Positions 4,737 to 15,330 of a stretch of DNA of 15,756 bases are shown here, one piece after another. This DNA comes from a virus. Its lineage: Duplodnaviria; Heunggongvirae; Uroviricota; Caudoviricetes. Below the pieces are notes generated by a model. That model saw nothing but the letters and a program-made list of their open reading frames with translations, was not told the DNA's origin and searched no databases. The position numbers were made by a program, and so were the translations under genes. The DNA is taken from IMG/VR virus record IMGVR_UViG_2778261543_000003, positions 1 to 15,756 of that record; one strand, 5' to 3'. Every line of letters starts with the position of its first letter. Position 1 is the stretch's first letter.

Positions 4737-5036
4737 TCAAATAAGTGGTTTGCTGCCTAATTTCATTTTCTGGCGACCAACACAAGTCACACCCATTTCA
4801 CTGCGTGGCTTGCGGTAGTAAATACGATTCTGTTTACTCTCGACTTCTTCTGCCTTCTTGCAGCGAAGGCTTCCGAGTGATGCTGCTTTGTCTGCTCTGA
4901 CGCAACCAGAGAGCTTTAGCGCATTTTTTCGCGCCAGTCGCTGCTCTTGCATTGCCTGTTCACGTTGAGCCTGTCTGCGTGCTCTGCGGCGATTTCTGGC
5001 GTTATCGTCAGCCAGATATGTAATGACTACTGTCAT
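4737..5036 (-). CDS. N: Antitermination protein N
   Basis: Arg-rich N-terminal motif (DDNARNRRRARRQAQREQ) and C-terminus YYRKPRSEMGVTCVGRQKMKLGSKPLI closely matching the lambda N C-terminus as I recall it; GGAGG 7 nt upstream of the ATG at 5036; nutL lies upstream. Confidence 0.75.
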   Translation of the reverse strand: MTVVITYLADDNARNRRRARRQAQREQAMQEQRLARKNALKLSGCVRADKAASLGSLRCKKAEEVESKQNRIYYRKPRSEMGVTCVGRQKMKLGSKPLI

Positions 5037-5367: not shown

Positions 5368-5408
5368 TCCCGCATTTCGGCGGGACAATCCCATCAATGT
5401 TAAAGAGC
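5368..5408 (-). promoter_or_regulatory. nutL (boxA GCTCTTTAA plus boxB hairpin)
   Basis: Minus-strand GGCTCTTTAACA ... TCCCGC-cgaaau-GCGGGA; the same arrangement occurs on the plus strand at 7082-7125; boxA matches the lambda CGCTCTTA consensus. Confidence 0.6.
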
Positions 5409-5454
5409 CTGCCAATCTGTTCCGTTTGGCTACCAGCGTCCTGCTGATGGCTTA

Positions 5455-5496
5455 AAGATAACTTAGGTTATAGGTGTGGTCAATAACCTAATTTAT
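5455..5496 (-). promoter_or_regulatory. pL promoter with operators OL1/OL2
   Basis: Minus-strand TTGACC (5483-5478), 17-nt spacer, TATCTT (5460-5455); operator ATAACTTAGGTTAT at 5458-5471 overlaps the -10 and ATAACCTAATTTAT at 5483-5496 overlaps the -35. Confidence 0.55.
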
Positions 5497-5660
5497 ATTT
5501 TGTGGTAAATAAGTTATAAGTGATGGATAACAAAGGTATTTTATTTTTGTAAATGTTGCTGATTGATTGGTGTTTGAGGGCTTGCGTGCGGGGTGAAGGT
5601 GTTACCTTTGGCTTGATGCTTGTCTATGATGATGATGGGTGATTGGGTGGTGAACGGCAG

Positions 5661-5695
5661 GAAAAGAAAACCCGGCGCTGAGGCCGGGTGTTTTT
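5661..5695 (-). terminator. Intrinsic terminator ending the cI operon (potentially bidirectional)
   Basis: CCCGGC-gctgag-GCCGGG stem-loop flanked by a T-run on the plus strand and an A-run (U-run on the minus strand); starts right after the stop of the 5694-5990 gene. Confidence 0.7.
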
Positions 5696-5990
5696 AGTCT
5701 TTTCTTTTGCTTAGCATTTCGTCGATTTCTAAGTCAATACGATATTGATCTATTGCTTTTCTCTCGTTTGGGGTTGGTATTTTATATTGTTCAATTAGAT
5801 CTGTTGTGTATTTTATTTCATCTAATGTGATTTTTATATCAGAGAGAATCTCTTTTATATCAATTAGATGCTCTTCTTCTTTTGCGCGATTAGAGCTATG
5901 TTCAATCATTTGAGATAGCTTTTTACTAATGCTTAGCAAAACAAAAAGAATGATGATCAAAACAACAACAAAAACTATCAGAAATTCCAT
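5694..5990 (-). CDS. AT-rich single-pass membrane protein with coiled-coil-like C-terminal region, cotranscribed with cI
   Basis: GGAGGGATA-ATG RBS 40 nt downstream of the cI stop; hydrophobic N-terminus EFLIVFVVVLIIILFVLLSI, then a charged, periodic Ile/Leu segment; followed by a terminator. Confidence 0.7.
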   Translation of the reverse strand: MEFLIVFVVVLIIILFVLLSISKKLSQMIEHSSNRAKEEEHLIDIKEILSDIKITLDEIKYTTDLIEQYKIPTPNERKAIDQYRIDLEIDEMLSKRKD

Positions 5991-6030
5991 TATCCCTCCG
6001 CACTTCCGTAAGTCTTCTTCTGATTATCGG

Positions 6031-6738
6031 TTACCAACTATGAGACGACCAGAATACTCTGCCAATAATCCTTACGGTTTCATGAAATTCATCTCTATCC
6101 ATTACTTCATCCGGGTACTCTTCGCGATTTATTGATCTGATTATCACCGATGTAGGGGTGGCGATTAATGTTTTTACTCGTAACAAATCAGACTGGCAAA
6201 TAGCGTAGGTTTTACCATCTCTGATTGTGGTATCTTGCGTGTTAACACCAACAACATCGCCATCGTGAAGCGTTGGTTCCATGCTTTGCCCTACAACCCT
6301 AACTAGCTTGGCTGATCTTTCAGATACTCCCATCTTTTTCAGATAGTGCTTTCTGAAAACCAAAGAGAACTCCGATGATTCCTCTAGCTCGCAGCTACCG
6401 CTTCCAGCTGAAAGCGAAACGTTAAGAAGAGGCAACGCAACAAACTCGTCATCGTTTCTTTTAATGTCTTCCCATACCACAGCTTTTAAAGATGACTCAC
6501 GGACATTGGATGGTTCTTCATGTGCACCATCCCTCATTTCACCAATACCAGAACTAAGCCATTCAGGGCGCACTTTTAAAGCATTGGCTAATTCAACCAT
6601 CTTGCGAGATCCGTTTGTTTTACCGGACGACATCTTCTGTATGGCTGGCTGAGATATTCCAACCATGTCAGCAAGCTGTGATTGTGATACCCCTGCCGAG
6701 CTCATGGCTGCATTTAGTCTTTCTGCGAATGTTTTCAT
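6031..6738 (-). CDS. cI: cI-type repressor (HTH plus S24 LexA-like peptidase domain)
   Basis: HTH SQSQLADMVGISQPAIQKM; S24 signature GQSMEPTLHDGDVVGV and a downstream Lys (LRVKTL). Start taken at MKTF (6738) because the longer track start at 6768 would overlap an operator. Confidence 0.85.
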   Translation of the reverse strand: MKTFAERLNAAMSSAGVSQSQLADMVGISQPAIQKMSSGKTNGSRKMVELANALKVRPEWLSSGIGEMRDGAHEEPSNVRESSLKAVVWEDIKRNDDEFVALPLLNVSLSAGSGSCELEESSEFSLVFRKHYLKKMGVSERSAKLVRVVGQSMEPTLHDGDVVGVNTQDTTIRDGKTYAICQSDLLRVKTLIATPTSVIIRSINREEYPDEVMDRDEFHETVRIIGRVFWSSHSW

Positions 6739-6750
6739 ACCCACAAATCT

Positions 6751-6816
6751 ATAACTACGGTTATCCAAAGTAAAATAACAAAGGTTATTGCTATTTTTTA
6801 TAACTTGAGTTATCTT
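6751..6816 (+). promoter_or_regulatory. OR operator triplet with pR (and divergent pRM) region
   Basis: ATAACTACGGTTAT (6751-6764), ATAACAAAGGTTAT (6775-6788) and ATAACTTGAGTTAT (6800-6813) at 24-25 bp spacing; candidate pR -35 TTGCTA (6788-6793) and -10 TATCTT (6811-6816). Confidence 0.6.
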
Positions 6817-6849
6817 TGGTTATAAGTAATGACCACAAGAGGTATGCTC

Positions 6850-7074
6850 ATGAATTTAGTAATTCAACGAGCCTTGAAAATTGTCGGTAGCCAAAAGCGC
6901 CTTGCCGACAAGTGTGGTGTAACGCAGCCAGCAGTACACAAATGGCTGAAAGGCGGGTTGGTCTCTCCAGAGAAAGTTACCGCCATCGTTAACGCCACTG
7001 GAGGGCAGATCAAGGCTTACGAAATTCGCCCCGATTTGCCACACCTGTTTCCAAAACCGAATCAGGCAGCATAA
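6850..7074 (+). CDS. cro: Cro-like HTH regulator (YdaS-like)
   Basis: First rightward gene after OR; AAGAGG 7 nt upstream of the ATG at 6850; HTH SQKRLADKCGVTQPAVHKWLK; C-terminal YEIRPDLPHLFP. Confidence 0.65.
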   Translation: MNLVIQRALKIVGSQKRLADKCGVTQPAVHKWLKGGLVSPEKVTAIVNATGGQIKAYEIRPDLPHLFPKPNQAA

Positions 7075-7081
7075 GTAACAC

Positions 7082-7125
7082 CGCTCTTTAACAGTCATGG
7101 TCCTCATTCCCGCCGAAATGCGGGA
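7082..7125 (+). promoter_or_regulatory. nutR (boxA CGCTCTTTA plus boxB hairpin)
   Basis: CGCTCTTTAACA then TTCCCGC-cgaaau-GCGGGAA between cro and cII; inverted counterpart of nutL. Confidence 0.6.
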
Positions 7126-7183
7126 ATGCAACGCGCATAAGTTGATGCGCATAACTTCTTATTAGTTAAGGAAATACTTACAT

Positions 7184-7462
7184 ATGCAACTTACAAGTAC
7201 TCGCAAGAAAGCGAATGCAATTACAAGCAACATCCTGAATCGAATTGCTGTACGTGGTCAGCGAAAGGTTGCCGACGCGTTAGGGATTAATGAATCGCAA
7301 ATTTCGCGATGGAAAGACAGCTTCATCCCAAAAATGGGAATGCTTCTGGCTGTTCTTGAATGGGGTGTTGAAGACGAGGAGTTGGCGGAACTGGCTAAGA
7401 AAGTAGCCAGAATGCTGACAAAAGAAAAAGCCCCGAAGAACGGCGAATTCTTCGAGGCCTGA
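7184..7462 (+). CDS. cII: Transcriptional activator cII
   Basis: Strong resemblance to lambda cII as I recall it (ILNRIA, SQISRWK, IPKMGMLLAVLEWGV). Confidence 0.85.
   Translation: MQLTSTRKKANAITSNILNRIAVRGQRKVADALGINESQISRWKDSFIPKMGMLLAVLEWGVEDEELAELAKKVARMLTKEKAPKNGEFFEA
7418..7454 (-). terminator. Minus-strand intrinsic terminator inside the cII 3' end (candidate OOP-like antisense RNA terminator)
   Basis: 7-bp stem CGAAGAA/TTCTTCG (7434-7440 with 7448-7454) followed on the minus strand by GGGCUUUUUCUUUU. Confidence 0.45.
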
Positions 7463-7496: not shown

Positions 7497-7658
7497 ATGA
7501 CAAAACGTCGTAAGAAATACCAGGAAAAAGAAGAGATTCGACACCCTGATTCACCTGAGGGATTAGTGGTAGCCGCAGCAAATAACAGGGCGTTCGCAGA
7601 GCGCCTTGTTGGTGTTTACAGACTAGCCAAAGCAGGAGTGAAACATGGGCGTCGTTAA
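7497..7658 (+). CDS. Small basic hypothetical protein (53 aa, MTKRRKKYQEKEEIRHPDSPEG...)
   Basis: AGGAG 5 nt upstream of ATG; its 3' end overlaps the O start by 14 nt; not in the ORF track. Confidence 0.35.
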   Translation: MTKRRKKYQEKEEIRHPDSPEGLVVAAANNRAFAERLVGVYRLAKAGVKHGRR

Positions 7659-8466
7659 GTTAGCTGATTACAGGCCTCAACTGGAGGTCGTGGAGCATCG
7701 CGTGGCAGATACCGAAGATGGTTTCATGCGCGTTGCTAACGAGATTACCGACAGTCTGCTGATGGCTGATTTAACCGTCCGGCAGTTGAAGGTGATGCTC
7801 GCTATCATGCGCAAGACATACGGATTCAATAAGCCGATGGATCGACTCACAAACACGCAGATAGCAGCCATGACAGGTATTCATCACACTCATGTTTGCG
7901 CTGCCAAGCGCCAGCTTATTGAGCGTAAATTCCTCATTGCTGATGGCGTGAAAATCGGAGTGAACAAGGTGGTTTCTCAGTGGATTAGCCAGGACAGCTT
8001 AACATTAGCTAAAACAGCTAATAAAACATTAGCCAAGTCGGCTAATGGGTATAAGCCAAGTCAGCTAAACACAAAAGACAATATACAAAAGACAATAAAT
8101 ACAAATACCCCCTTACCCCCTAACGGGGGCGGCGATGGGCAGGTTAAACCTGAACGTCGCAAGGCAGAACGAATCGACTACGAATCCTTCCTGAACGCCT
8201 ACAACACCGAAGTCGGTGACAGACTTCCGCATGCTGTTGCGGTCAACGAGAAACGCAAACGCCGCCTGAAGAAAATCATCCCGCAACTGAAAACGCCAAA
8301 CGTGGACGGTTTCAGAGCGTATGTCAGGGCGTTTGTGCATCAGGCCAAGCCGTTTTACTTCGGAGACAACGACACGGGCTGGACGGCCGATTTTGATTAC
8401 CTGCTGAGGGAAGATTCGTTAACGGGAGTACGGGAAGGGAAGTTTGCAGACAGGGGGATTGCATGA
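7645..8466 (+). CDS. O: Replication initiation protein O
   Basis: N-terminal domain resembles lambda O ([28 protein letters not shown]); AGGAG RBS; iteron-like repeats inside the linker; ATGA overlap with the downstream helicase. Confidence 0.8.
7990..8105 (+). repeat. Candidate replication origin: iteron-like repeats plus AT-rich tract inside O
   Basis: AGCCAAGTCGGCTAA (8031-8045) and AGCCAAGTCAGCTAA (8054-8068), further AGCTAA motifs at about 10-bp phasing, then an A-rich tract with ACAAAAGACAATA repeated. Confidence 0.45.
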
Positions 8467-9839
8467 GACAGGATATCGAAGCGAGCGTTATCGGTGGCCT
8501 GCTGATTGGTGGATTAACACCAACCGCCAGCGACGTTCTGGCAACGCTGGAGCCGGAAGCGTTTTCAATTCCGCTCTACCGGAAAGCCTTCGAGGTTATC
8601 CGCAAGCAGGCGAGAAACAGAAACCTAATCGACGCGCTGATGGTTGCAGAGGCGTGCGGAGAGGAGCATTTCACGTCAATCCTGATGACCAGCAAGAACT
8701 GCCCGAGTGCCGCAAACCTGAAGGGATATGCTGGAATGGTCGCGGATAACTATCACCGCCGTCTGGTGCTGGAAATCATGGACGAAATGCGTGAACCAAT
8801 TCAGAGCGGAACCATCGACGCATCGAGTCAGGCGATGGACGAGCTGGTAAAGCGTCTTTCAGCCATCAGAAAGCCACGTGACGAGGTAAAACCTGTACGG
8901 TTAGGGGAAATCATCACCGACTACACTGACACGCTTGACAGGCGTCTGAGGAACGGAGAAGAGTCAGATACCCTGAAGACCGGAATCGAAGAACTTGACG
9001 CTATCACCGGAGGGATGAACGCTGAAGACCTGGTGATTATCGCCGCTCGTCCTGGTATGGGGAAAACCGAACTGGCGCTAAAGATTGCCGAAGGTGTTGC
9101 AAGCCGCGTTATTCCTGGTTCTGACGTCCGGCGCGGAGTATTGATTTTCTCGATGGAAATGAGCGCATTGCAGATTGCAGAGCGAAGCATTGCCAACGCC
9201 GGGAGGATGTCGGTTAGCGTACTGCGAAATCCTGCATCGATGGATGACGAGGGCTGGGCACGTGTTGCTAACGGCATGAGTCAGCTTGCAGATTTGGATG
9301 TATGGGTAGTCGATGCCTCGCGGTTATCGGTCGAAGAAATACGCTCAATCGCAGAACGGCACAAACAGGAAAATCCAAACCTGTCACTCATCATGGCGGA
9401 TTATCTTGGCCTGATTGAGAAGCCGAAAGCAGATCGCAACGACCTTGCAATTGCTCACATCTCCGGAAGCCTGAAGGCGATGGCGAAAGACCTGAAAACG
9501 CCTGTTATCTCCCTGAGTCAGCTTTCGCGCGATGTTGAGAAGCGACCAAACAAACGCCCGACAAACGCAGATTTGCGTGATTCAGGAAGCATTGAGCAGG
9601 ACGCAGACTCAATCATCATGCTCTATCGGGAAGCGGTATATGACGAGAACAGTAGCGCCGCGCCATTTGCTGAAATCATTGTGACAAAAAACCGTTTTGG
9701 CTCACTTGGTACGGTTTACCAGCGGTTCTGCAACGGACACTTTGTTGCATGTGACCAGGATGAAGCCAGACAGATTTGCACAGCATCAAATGCACCTGCT
9801 GCGCGTGGCAGACGATATGCACAAGGGGCTGACGTATGA
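8463..9839 (+). CDS. DnaB-family replicative DNA helicase
   Basis: DnaB-like N-terminal domain followed by a RecA-type ATPase core with Walker [10 protein letters not shown]; sits directly after O. Confidence 0.9.
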
Positions 9840-12575: not shown

Positions 12576-12650
12576 GGGTCAGTCGTATAAAGGTCATTAC
12601 GGAAGGCTGTTAACCTTCTTATCGTGGTTCGAGTCAACGCTGTCCCGCCA
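12576..12650 (+). tRNA. tRNA-Asn-like (anticodon GUU), possibly degenerate
   Basis: Cloverleaf foldable by hand: anticodon arm GAAGG-CTGTTAA-CCTTC, T-loop TTCGAGT, 3' CCA; but one acceptor mismatch, one T-stem mismatch and an odd D-arm. Confidence 0.4.
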
Positions 12651-12655
12651 AATAT

Positions 12656-12731
12656 GCTGGTTTAGCTCCAATGGTAGAGCAGTCGCCTTGTAAGCGAATG
12701 GGTAGCGGTTCAAGTCCGTTAACCAGCACCA
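12656..12731 (+). tRNA. tRNA-Thr (anticodon UGU)
   Basis: 76 nt; perfect 7-bp acceptor stem GCTGGTT/AACCAGC, D-stem GCTC/GAGC with GG in loop, anticodon loop CTTGTAA, T-loop TTCAAGT, 3' ACCA. Confidence 0.75.
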
Positions 12732-15111: not shown

Positions 15112-15330
15112 CGGCAGTACCGCGAAACAACCCAAGCCAGTAAGTGGGGAAATAACACTGGCAGCCACTGAAAGATGAACCTCCAGCCTTATGGCAAAAA
15201 AGATTCTTTGTGGTGGCGGACTGATGGAAAGACATCGGATAGAATAAAACAGTGGCTAGGGTAGCTCCCGAAAAGCGGAATCGTCACCGCCAGCCACTGA
15301 ATCTATGACGAACAACTAGACGAGGTTGAT

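Follow-up and report, generated by a model that had tools for sequence, protein, structure and literature searches.

The N antitermination systems of lambdoid phages differ in the host factors that they need, H-19B being a reported case in which N and boxB depend less on boxA and NusB. In lambda, the boxB hairpin ends in a pentaloop (GAAAA or GAAGA) that is closed by a U-A pair and has one base extruded; Trp18 of N stacks on this loop, and the extruded base contributes to the formation of the NusA-dependent complex. The boxB-N pairs of lambda and P22 were reportedly described by Legault et al. in 1998 and by Cai et al. in 1998 (PDB 1A4T), and the structure of the phi21 boxB with its N peptide is said to come from Cilley and Williamson in 2003 (PDB 1NYB). 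The genome of HK620 was reportedly published by Clark et al. in 2001 (J Mol Biol 311:657); its nut feature is labelled "putative" in AF335538. As described in PMC12550061, the loop of P22 is GACAA, a pentaloop from which the C is extruded, and the boxB of phage 21 (phi21), CUAACC, is a known hexaloop in which a C·C pair flanks a GNRA-like four-base turn (PDB 1NYB). According to a review (PMC8632103), the segment of lambda N spanning residues 74-110 enters RNA polymerase.

Here we compare with these systems two sites found in the window (the whole stretch of DNA analysed, 15,756 nt). The two are very probably the leftward and rightward N-utilisation sites, nutL and nutR, of an HK620-type lambdoid phage or prophage, served by the N/boxB mechanism that we propose below.

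Two nut Sites in a Canonical Early Region

The features of the early region are listed in the order in which they lie in the window.

4737..5036, minus strand: gene of the N antiterminator, 99 aa (phrog_271 match, start support)
5409-5367, minus strand: nutL, GGCTCTTTAACA TTGATGGGATTG TCCCGCCGAAATGCGGGAA
5408-5398, minus strand: boxA of nutL, GCUCUUUAACA
5397-5386, minus strand: spacer of nutL, UUGAUGGGAUUG
5385-5380, minus strand: 5' stem of nutL boxB, UCCCGC
5379-5374, minus strand: loop of nutL boxB, CGAAAU
5373-5368, minus strand: 3' stem of nutL boxB, GCGGGA
5455..5483, minus strand: pL-like promoter, TTGACC, 17 nt, TATCTT (consensus scan; overlaps operator-like repeats)
6788..6816, plus strand: putative pR, TTGCTA, 17 nt, TATCTT (read from the sequence)
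6850..7074, plus strand: cro (open reading frame; Pfam P22_Cro, YdaS and HTH_3 matches; start 6850 after AAGAGG)
7082-7126, plus strand: nutR, CGCTCTTTAACA GTCATGGTCCTCAT TCCCGCCGAAATGCGGGAA
7082..7128, plus strand: nutR with the full stem (sequence, pattern search, fold, HK620 match)
7083-7093, plus strand: boxA of nutR, GCUCUUUAACA
7094-7104, plus strand: spacer of nutR before the 9-bp stem
7105-7113, plus strand: 5' stem of nutR boxB, CAUUCCCGC
7114-7119, plus strand: loop of nutR boxB, CGAAAU
7120-7128, plus strand: 3' stem of nutR boxB, GCGGGAAUG
7184..7462, plus strand: cII (Pfam Phage_CII, E 1.8e-42; first gene 3' of nutR)

Each site has, in its transcribed strand, a boxA element (consensus CGCUCUU(U)A) 5' of boxB, with a short spacer between the two. 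When the two were aligned, boxA (GCTCTTTAACA) was identical at 11/11 positions and the boxB block TCCCGCCGAAATGCGGGAA at 19/19, its repeat arms being 100% complementary; as RNA, the boxB block reads UCCCGC-CGAAAU-GCGGGAA at both sites. The spacer between boxA and the 19-nt block is 14 nt in nutR and 12 nt in nutL, with 6 matches in 14 columns, and because it diverges between the two identical blocks the overall identity is only 80% (36/45). The window contains exactly two copies of the composite pattern of boxA, spacer and boxB, far more than chance would give, since 200 shuffles yielded none. The boxB block alone, with up to 3 mismatches allowed, was likewise found twice, against 0.01 expected. 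When the entire window was searched against Rfam at a permissive E-value, only two tRNAs and an int-alpA-like RNA matched; Rfam is without a nut-site family, so that this result speaks neither for nor against the sites.

The gene order is canonical: N, nutL, pL, cI, pR, cro, nutR, cII, O, P. The leftward site follows the pL-like promoter and precedes N (5036-4737, minus strand), and the position of that promoter at 5483-5455 therefore puts the boxA of nutL about 40 nt into the transcript. The operator-like inverted repeats at the pL-like promoter recur on the pR side, where the putative pR matches 8 of 12 consensus positions, which is under the scan threshold, and was not called by the consensus scan. 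As the inverted repeat 5454-5472/6799-6817 is 89% complementary, the -10 element of pR and its operator block may be an inverted copy of the pL block. On the rightward side, nutR sits between cro and cII: the stop codon of cro is at 7072-7074, and the boxA of nutR begins 9 nt later.

The sequence-only reading had placed a nutL and a nutR at these positions, and both were found there to within one base. Its claims that they share boxA and an identical boxB hairpin, and that they lie downstream of pL and pR, agree with the pairwise alignment, in which the similarity extends beyond boxA into boxB, and with the gene map, the pL-like promoter and the stop codon of cro. It had also called the sites 44-nt near-identical copies, and this holds for the boxA and boxB blocks but not for the spacer (6/14) or for the sites as a whole (80%). 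The names nutL and nutR were borne out by the features of AF335538 as well as by the canonical gene order.

Identity with the Sites of HK620

The nutL of the window is identical to the annotated nutL of HK620 (AF335538) over the 62 nt compared. Its nutR is identical to that of HK620 from boxA through boxB, and one base differs just 3' of boxB: with the G at 7128 the stem reaches 9 bp here, as against 8 bp in HK620. The two phages have boxA, boxB and spacer in common, as well as the positions of the sites relative to pL, N, cro and cII, and the arginine-rich motif of N matches too. Judged by their sequence, the sites are essentially the HK620 nut sites, already known and annotated since 2001. 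The same nutR was found in 399 of 5,426 complete E. coli genomes (about 7%), in prophages. HK620 differs from the window in its cI/cro immunity region, and a 39-aa open reading frame in the N leader is found here but not there. We considered whether the locus is the relic of a decayed prophage and rejected this, since N, its ribosome-binding site and the two nut sites are intact and hundreds of genomes conserve the arrangement.

The N Protein and Its Pairing with boxB

The longest open reading frame would give an N of 123 aa. We corrected the start to 5036 (99 aa), which is supported by a GGAGG 6 nt upstream and by the N-terminus MTVVITY, conserved in relatives; the same MTV(V)ITY leader peptide opens the N of P22. 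The protein matches phrog_271, "anti-termination protein N-like" (E 2.6e-35), and contains the motif DNARNRRRARRQAQREQ, while its match to Pfam N_peptide is weak (18.2 bits, under the cut-off of 27.9). The arginine-rich motif occupies residues 9-27 (ADDNARNRRRARRQAQREQ), which probably bind boxB. By tblastn, residues 1-64, with the whole motif, are about 97% identical to the N of HK620, and residues 37-99, corresponding to the C-terminal two-thirds, are about 94% identical to that of phage 21. The C-terminus of the HK620 protein is of the HK620/P22 type, whereas the one found here is of the phage-21 type. N thus reads as a mosaic of an HK620-type arginine-rich motif, DNARNRRRARRQAQREQ, and a phage-21/lambda-like C-terminus. 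Residues 62-99 align to residues 74-110 of the lambda N chain 6GOV_N and would correspond to the tail that binds RNA polymerase. The first half of the lambda motif shows the same A-x-x-RRR-x-RR pattern, but Trp18 of lambda N aligns with an Ala here, and the motifs of phi21 (GTAKSRYKARRAELIAERR) and P22 (GNAKTRRHERRRKLAIER) are different from DNARNRRRARRQAQREQ.

Relatives were collected by scanning contigs and viral sequences. The contig scan with N gave 7 loci, which served as controls of the lambda, P22 and phi21 types. The first alignment-seeded viral scan returned mostly the same close relatives; diversity was obtained when a divergent N was placed first in the alignment. Wherever the motif family [D/S]D[N/T]A[R/K]NRRRx[R/K]R was seen in the relatives compared, this boxB class came with it, irrespective of the C-terminus of N, and the HK620-type motif was found joined to at least 4 different C-terminal types. 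We counted 192 N genes of the family for which 450 nt or more was available upstream, and in 180 of them a boxA followed by an [A/C]GNRAU hairpin was present within 520 nt upstream. The remaining 12 were read by eye and comprise 8 longer leaders, 1 point variant of boxA with the same boxB, and 3 cases of unrelated upstream DNA. The loop follows the motif also where the C-terminus is of the phage-21 type: with a lambda-type motif it is GAAGA (L011), with a P22-type motif GACAA (L001) and with a phi21-type motif CUAACC (L004). Most loci are very close relatives, so that these counts represent few independent evolutionary events.

By comparison, this co-occurrence across mosaic N proteins supports a putative distinct specificity pair of motif and boxB, as the sequence-only reading had supposed. 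Motif and boxB seem to act together as one self-contained unit of specificity that is exchanged between N proteins whose C-termini differ. Our search of the literature, including a full-text search for the boxB sequence, returned no binding or antitermination experiment on this class and no text quoting the boxB.

The boxB Loop

The isolated nutR hairpin folds at -14.3 kcal/mol (z -4.1) with a 9-bp stem (7105-7113 with 7120-7128), and that of nutL at -10.5 kcal/mol (z -3.4) with a 6-bp stem (5385-5380 with 5373-5368). Both minimum free energy folds leave the six bases CGAAAU unpaired. The sequence-only reading had proposed a loop of 6 nt and not 5, and for canonical pairing this holds; it needs refining, given that a hexaloop is no new architecture (phage 21 has one). 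The lambda loop is likewise purine-rich and of the GNRA type, with G first and A last, but here four GNRA bases stand between an unpaired C and U, and as C and U do not form a standard pair the site does not fall with the pentaloops of lambda and P22. A pyrimidine·pyrimidine flank (C·C) is also seen in P22-type nutR, ACCGC-C GACAA C-GCGGU.

The closest likeness is to phi21, whose loop also has six bases, with outer pyrimidines flanking a four-base turn (C-UAAC-C, as compared with C-GAAA-U here), and whose boxA is the same rrn-type GCUCUUUAACA. The inner loop of phi21 is a UMAC-type mimic, while GAAA is a true GNRA sequence. The boxB of the window appears to work like the phi21-type hexaloops, with the same length and pyrimidine flanks, without being a member of that family by sequence, since its inner bases are GAAA and not UAAC and the motif of N differs.

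Among 35 distinct hairpins of relatives we found CGAAAU 24 times, CGCAAU 6 times, AGAGAU 3 times, and AGAAAU and CGAGAU once each. Three positions (G2, A5, U6) never vary, while position 3 holds either A or C and position 4 either A or G; the invariance at G2, R4 and A5 was partly imposed because the filter by which the hairpins were selected demanded these bases. With the same filter, the inner loops were only GAAA, GCAA and GAGA. A survey that took the best hairpin without any loop filter brought up no other loop type in loci of the motif family; its automatic picks were wrong at several sites (including L270, L246, L229, L271, L257 and the nutR of L248), which were resolved by reading them by eye. 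All loop variants seen in relatives fit [C/A]-GNRA-U, so that a GNRA tetraloop with a C·U mismatch as its closing pair may describe the loop better. It would then be a true GNRA tetraloop, which in some relatives closes on a Watson-Crick A-U pair.

We tentatively propose, as somewhat short of an even chance, that this widespread N/boxB class carries a four-base GNRA tetraloop on a conserved C·U (sometimes A-U) pair and lacks the extruded base of lambda and P22. It is rather unlikely, though a serious competitor, that the loop is an open hexaloop, which is the sequence-only reading taken literally: the sites would still be nut sites, but N would read all six bases individually, C1 and U6 included, and a GNRA turn seated on C·U would be absent. 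Thermodynamic folding gives the same picture for both geometries, and the six bases left unpaired suit an open loop; C1 (31 of 35 distinct hairpins) and the invariant U6 could equally reflect base-specific contacts. What speaks against six bases being read separately is that positions 2-5 vary only within the GNRA rules and that position 1 changes only to A (4 of the 35), the sole base that pairs with U6, by a Watson-Crick pair. Moreover, one phage (L242) has A-GAGA-U at nutL and C-GCAA-U at nutR, and both must be served by a single N, which therefore accepts differences at 3 of 6 loop positions if the GNRA pattern is kept. In the phi21 hexaloop, as given in PMC12550061, the outer pyrimidines are paired around a GNRA-like turn of the four inner bases.

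Proposed Mechanism

In the mechanism that we favour, the transcripts from pL and pR would each carry boxA, spacer and boxB. BoxA would presumably bring in the NusB-NusE(S10) heterodimer of the host, and the arginine-rich helix DNARNRRRARRQAQREQ near the N-terminus of the phage's own N would bind the boxB hairpin, while the lambda/phage-21-like C-terminal part of N would engage NusA and RNA polymerase. The elongation complex would then turn resistant to terminators, downstream of N leftward and downstream of cro rightward. Of the six unpaired loop bases, GAAA would most likely fold as a GNRA tetraloop, with C and U as a non-canonical closing pair beneath it, and N would read the GNRA fold as lambda N does, minus the fifth base that is extruded from the pentaloops of lambda and P22. 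The data show the sequence and anatomy of the sites, their identity with those annotated in HK620, the covariation of the stem and the joint inheritance of motif and boxB; from there we infer N binding, Nus-factor dependence, antitermination activity and the tetraloop-plus-C·U geometry.

The division of labour between boxA and boxB might be different. Antitermination could run mainly through an rrn-type boxA and Nus factors, with boxB and N in a minor or dispensable role, or the need for boxA and NusB could be reduced as in H-19B; we consider either improbable. The varying host-factor needs of lambdoid N systems would accommodate the H-19B-like form. For a boxA-driven mechanism one may cite the boxA GCUCUUUAACA itself, which matches the rrn-type sequence at 11/11 positions; the lambda boxA (in the lambda-type locus L011) is CGCUCUUA and not the rrn-type sequence. 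NusB is bound far more tightly by rrn boxA (130 nM) than by the lambda nut boxA (2200 nM; PMC2800207). However, boxB and its matching motif are conserved together, strictly so, across mosaic boundaries, an argument for selection on the contact between N and boxB, and N is intact behind a strong ribosome-binding site.

The hairpin is supported by covariation in the stem of boxB. In the 35 distinct boxB sequences of relatives, 87.9% of the cells are paired, compared with 37-59% when the register is slid, and in 5 of 8 stem pairs both partners have changed, as with a G-C beside the closing pair that became A-U and a U-A of the outer stem that became C-G. The observed covariation score was reached by none of 500 shuffles. 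Pairing is conserved while the sequence varies, and it is better on the sense strand (246/280 cells) than on the antisense strand (234/280).

That the 19-bp palindromes would act as protein-binding sites in DNA or as intrinsic terminators, and not as RNA hairpins bound by N, is scarcely credible: as DNA they do form perfect inverted repeats, and HK620 has an annotated tR1 immediately after nutR, but each follows a boxA, along the transcribed direction, at a short and fixed spacing, neither hairpin is followed by a T-run or called by the terminator scan, changes in the stem keep RNA pairing through G·U wobbles (18 cells on the sense strand vs 6 on the antisense, where such a change leaves an A·C mismatch), and the hairpin type goes with the arginine-rich motif of N, following neither the type of repressor or Cro nor that of the immunity region. 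We therefore rejected the intrinsic terminator on the missing T-run and the scan, and the DNA-level operator on the strand-specific wobble pairs and because the hairpin is linked with the motif of N, not with the type of immunity.

Implications

The early regulatory map of the window is fixed by these results: pL, nutL, N, cI, pR, cro, nutR, cII. Their wider importance is small, N/nut antitermination being textbook biology. A mildly useful by-product is the swapped motif-boxB module with a loop obeying [C/A]-GNRA-U. If the tetraloop closed by C·U is real, and if the extruded base does have that role in lambda, the bulge of the pentaloop would not be a general requirement of N antitermination. 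The class would then be a natural fourth motif-RNA pair, orthogonal to those of lambda, P22 and phi21, and should binding be confirmed, it may provide a further orthogonal peptide-RNA tether beside these three as an RNA-tethering tool.

Early-Control Region and nut Sites

The window contains an early-control region of the lambdoid kind, with the following features.

5036-4737, minus strand: N, antiterminator gene
5409-5367, minus strand: nutL, G-GCTCTTTAACA-TTGATGGGATTG-TCCCGCCGAAATGCGGGAA
5483-5455, minus strand: sigma-70-like promoter from the promoter scan (TTGACC, 17 nt, TATCTT)
5990-5694, minus strand: 98-aa gene of unknown function
6738-6031, minus strand: repressor, LexA/CI-type
6788-6816, plus strand: likely pR (TTGCTA, 17 nt, TATCTT), inferred, under the scan threshold
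6850-7074, plus strand: cro
7082-7126, plus strand: nutR, C-GCTCTTTAACA-GTCATGGTCCTCAT-TCCCGCCGAAATGCGGGAA
7184-7462, plus strand: cII
7645-8466, plus strand: initiator, O-type
8463-9839, plus strand: helicase, DnaB-type

The sequence-only reading had placed two nut sites downstream of pL and pR, and both are present there. In the leftward transcript from the promoter at 5483-5455, nutL is reached after about 40 nt, and a repeat search found an inverted copy of this promoter's -10 and operator block at 6799-6817, overlapping the likely pR. nutR starts 9 nt past the cro stop, ahead of cII, as in lambda. No T-run was found 3' of either boxB hairpin, and the terminator scan called neither. Elsewhere, on the minus strand within the cII 3' end (7460-7428), there is a strong hairpin that resembles a terminator and has a T-run; lambda has its oop antisense RNA terminator at this position. 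Two tRNA genes (12576-12647 and 12656-12728, plus strand) lie upstream of the lysis genes, and the Rfam int-alpA RNA family matches at 15249-15311 (plus strand; 42 bits against a gathering score of 35.8).

On pairwise comparison, nutL and nutR agree completely in boxA (11 nt) and in the boxB block (19 nt), as had been claimed. The description of the sites as near-identical over 44 nt did not hold: overall identity is 80%, because the spacers match in only 6 of 14 columns and differ in length by 2 nt. The nut sites are thus two conserved modules flanking a variable spacer. Over 15.7 kb there are exactly two matches to the composite nut pattern, against none in 200 shuffles; for boxB at up to 3 mismatches, 0.01 occurrences are expected by chance. 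At both sites boxB forms a stem rich in G+C, topped by a loop of six unpaired bases, CGAAAU (nutR: 9-bp stem, -14.3 kcal/mol, z -4.1; nutL: 6-bp stem, -10.5 kcal/mol, z -3.4). At nutL only, boxA GCUCUUU (5408-5402, minus strand) can pair in the MFE fold with AAAGAGU (5363-5357) just 3' of boxB; such pairing could enclose boxB in a larger hairpin and compete with NusB/NusE binding.

The boxA of both sites is GCUCUUUAACA, the rrn-type sequence. It is unlike the lambda-type boxA CGCUCUUA seen in the related locus L011, while the phi21-type sites (L004) have an identical boxA 11-mer and the P22-type nutL sites (L001, L012) an rrn-like variant, GCUCUUUAAC(U). Since the affinity of NusB is much higher for rrn boxA than for the lambda nut boxA (130 nM versus 2200 nM; PMC2800207), it is plausible that the boxA of the window recruits NusB and NusE strongly.

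Relation to HK620 and Distribution

The coliphage HK620 record (AF335538) carries features "nutL; putative N-utilization leftward" and "nutR; putative N-utilization rightward" that cover the same sequences. HK620 nutL is identical to that of the window over the 62 nt compared. The two nutR sites agree at every position from boxA to the end of boxB, and a single-base difference immediately 3' of the hairpin gives the window stem one more base pair. boxA is also annotated in HK630, mEpX2, and HK140. The nutR of the window was found in 399 of 5,426 complete E. coli genomes, chromosomal every time, and in many IMG/VR contigs. On these matches, the sites are HK620-type nutL and nutR, already annotated publicly and common in E. 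coli prophages. The window itself is a typical mosaic, and no phage record covering more than 50% of it was found. Two occurrences look like assembly or binning contamination: a 98.4% copy of the E. coli-type nutR in the 254-kb record of Aeromonas phage AP1 (MT713136.1, 253465-253525), some 1 kb short of its end, and HK620-like N/nut contigs binned in a Segatella copri MAG (L007, L013).

N Protein and Its Leader

The longest N ORF encodes 123 aa (5108-4737, minus strand). The true start is probably 5036, giving a protein of 99 aa rather than the 123-aa product, since GGAGG lies 6 nt ahead of this ATG and the N-terminus MTVVITY is common to relatives. Longer versions of N are annotated in some records, such as 113 aa in phage SH2026Stx1. 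N matches phrog_271, "anti-termination protein N-like" (E 2.6e-35), and Pfam N_peptide only below threshold. The protein is a mosaic: its residues 1-64 share about 97% identity with HK620 N, and its residues 37-99 about 94% with phage 21 N.

The arginine-rich motif (ARM) of N is DNARNRRRARRQAQREQ. The lambda-type N of L011 (DSQARRRERRAAKQAQW) has the first half in common with it, in the pattern A-x-x-RRR-x-RR, but differs in the second, which in lambda N carries Lys14, Gln15, and the loop-stacking Trp18; the Trp18 position is Ala in the window. The last 38 residues align with lambda N residues 74-110 (cryo-EM complex 6GOV), a segment that enters RNA polymerase according to a review (PMC8632103).

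A hydrophobic 39-aa ORF, MLDIMTNPILGGLVTTFAICFGFTIWSEVDDWMWERKNK, with the ribosome-binding site GAGGAACAGAAAATG (5196-5077, minus strand), matches phrog_7482 of unknown function (E 8e-25); because it sits in the leader, nutL is about 330 nt from the start of N. The 418-nt leader is more stably folded than its shuffles (z -3.2), and a long-range helix between UUGGCUUUGGGGUGUGGUG (5352-5334, minus strand) and CCACACCACCAAAGCUAA (about 5235-5215, minus strand) may, by analogy, be the counterpart of the RNase III hairpin in the lambda N leader. A boxC-like block, GGUGUGGUG, lies 3' of nutL, and the same block follows the lambda-type nutL in L011; a mosaic joint therefore falls right at the nut site. 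Some relatives (L005 at about 1290-900, minus strand; L022, L026, L028, L248, L259, L282, L303) have a conserved, structured-looking insert of about 300 nt, reading ...GGAGGTGCCGAAATGGTGCACTAACGCGGTTAGACCGCAGCCGAAAGGCAATGCAGC..., between nutL boxB and the CAAAGAGTAGTTGGCTTTGGGG leader block. It is absent from the window and gave no Rfam family at gathering score in L005, L259, or L303.

boxB as an RNA Element

boxA-linked hairpins were taken from loci encoding the window-type ARM family by N-seeded scans and one DNA-pattern scan. The 33 distinct boxB sequences and two related CGCAAU-loop hairpins (Hafnia phage yong1, L156) gave a set of 35. Standard pairs fill 87.9% of the cells of the eight-pair stem; sliding the 3' strand by 1-3 columns lowers this to 37-59%. 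In five of the eight pairs both partners have changed, for example from G-C to A-U in the pair second from the loop, or, farther out, from U-A to C-G and from G-C to A-U or U-A, and the observed covariation score was reached by 0 of 500 column shuffles. The transcribed strand pairs better than its complement (246/280 versus 234/280 cells) because 18 cells are G·U wobbles; the boxB structure is therefore under selection as RNA and in the transcribed orientation.

Among the relatives of Erwinia phage 49 (L006, L147, L242, L168, L252), pair three of the nutR boxB stem, counted from the loop, is always a mismatch, be it C·C, C·A, or C·U (for example GCUCCCAC-CGAAAU-GUCGGAGC), and nutL boxB is fully paired in these phages, a conserved difference between the two sites.

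Counted by canonical pairs, the loop is six bases long, as the sequence-only reading had it. A loop of this size is no novelty in itself, as in the phi21 boxB loop CUAACC a C·C pair is described as enclosing a GNRA-like UMAC turn (PDB 1NYB; PMC12550061); the P22 boxB pentaloop has an extruded base (PMC12550061). Among the 35 hairpins, which represent a small number of independent lineages, the loops are CGAAAU (24), CGCAAU (6), AGAGAU (3), AGAAAU (1), and CGAGAU (1). Positions 2-5 are G-N-R-A throughout, with G2, R4, and A5 demanded by the collection filter; a hairpin picker run without the loop filter, some of its picks corrected by hand, found no other loop type in ARM-family loci. U6 is invariant and position 1 is C or A, the latter able to form a Watson-Crick pair with U6. 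Since both A-GAGA-U (nutL) and C-GCAA-U (nutR) occur within single genomes such as L242, one N would seem to tolerate differences at three of the six loop positions if GNRA is kept. The loop variants all fit [C/A]-GNRA-U. Read most simply, and with a modest preference on our part, boxB carries a true GNRA tetraloop closed by a C·U pair, which is replaced by A-U in some relatives. On this reading N would recognise a GNRA fold, as is reported for lambda N (Legault et al. 1998), but the base extruded from the lambda and P22 pentaloops would be missing.

Four-base GNRA loops seem to occur with other N classes too: L013 (2777-2830, plus strand) combines the ARM TAASRRRARRANLQ with boxB UGGCU-GAAA-AGCCA, and yong1 (L005, nutL on the minus strand), with the ARM NAKQRCKLRRLERR, has GUAUGCC-GAGA-GGUGUAC at nutL and C-GCAA-U at nutR.

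Co-occurrence of ARM and boxB

The set examined comprised 192 N genes whose ARM belongs to the family [D/S]D[N/T]A[R/K]NRRRx[R/K]R and that have 450 nt or more of sequence upstream. In 180 of them, boxA and an [A/C]GNRAU hairpin lie within 520 nt upstream. The other 12, read by eye, comprise eight with a longer leader (boxB visible at the edge of the upstream stretch in two), one with a boxA point change and the same boxB, and three with unrelated upstream DNA. The window-type ARM occurs with C-termini of at least four kinds (...GRQKMKLGSKPLI, ...YAAGYRKSKQLTAR, ...HIIK, and ...RGKSIPLI), and the phage-21-type C-terminus of the window occurs with three other ARM types.

Boxes B found with the phage-21-type C-terminus and other ARM types
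Lambda-type ARM (L011): GCCCU-GAAGA-AGGGC
P22-type ARM (L001, phage SH2026Stx1): GCGCU-GACAA-AGCGC (nutL), ACCGC-CGACAAC-GCGGU (nutR)
phi21-type ARM (L004, L009, L010): CUAACC hexaloops

Because ARM and boxB switch together while the C-terminus stays constant, the comparison supports, as a correlation only, a self-contained specificity module made of the two. The distinct ARM-boxB specificity proposed earlier gains comparative support from this joint switching and from the co-occurrence in 180 of 192 genes, both being correlations; a binding or reporter experiment on this ARM-boxB class was not found in the literature searched. The original observation is confirmed, and its interpretation is supported with the refinement of the loop. 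What this analysis adds to the existing annotation is solely the comparative case for a boxB with a putative C·U-closed GNRA tetraloop, apparently co-inherited with its own ARM.
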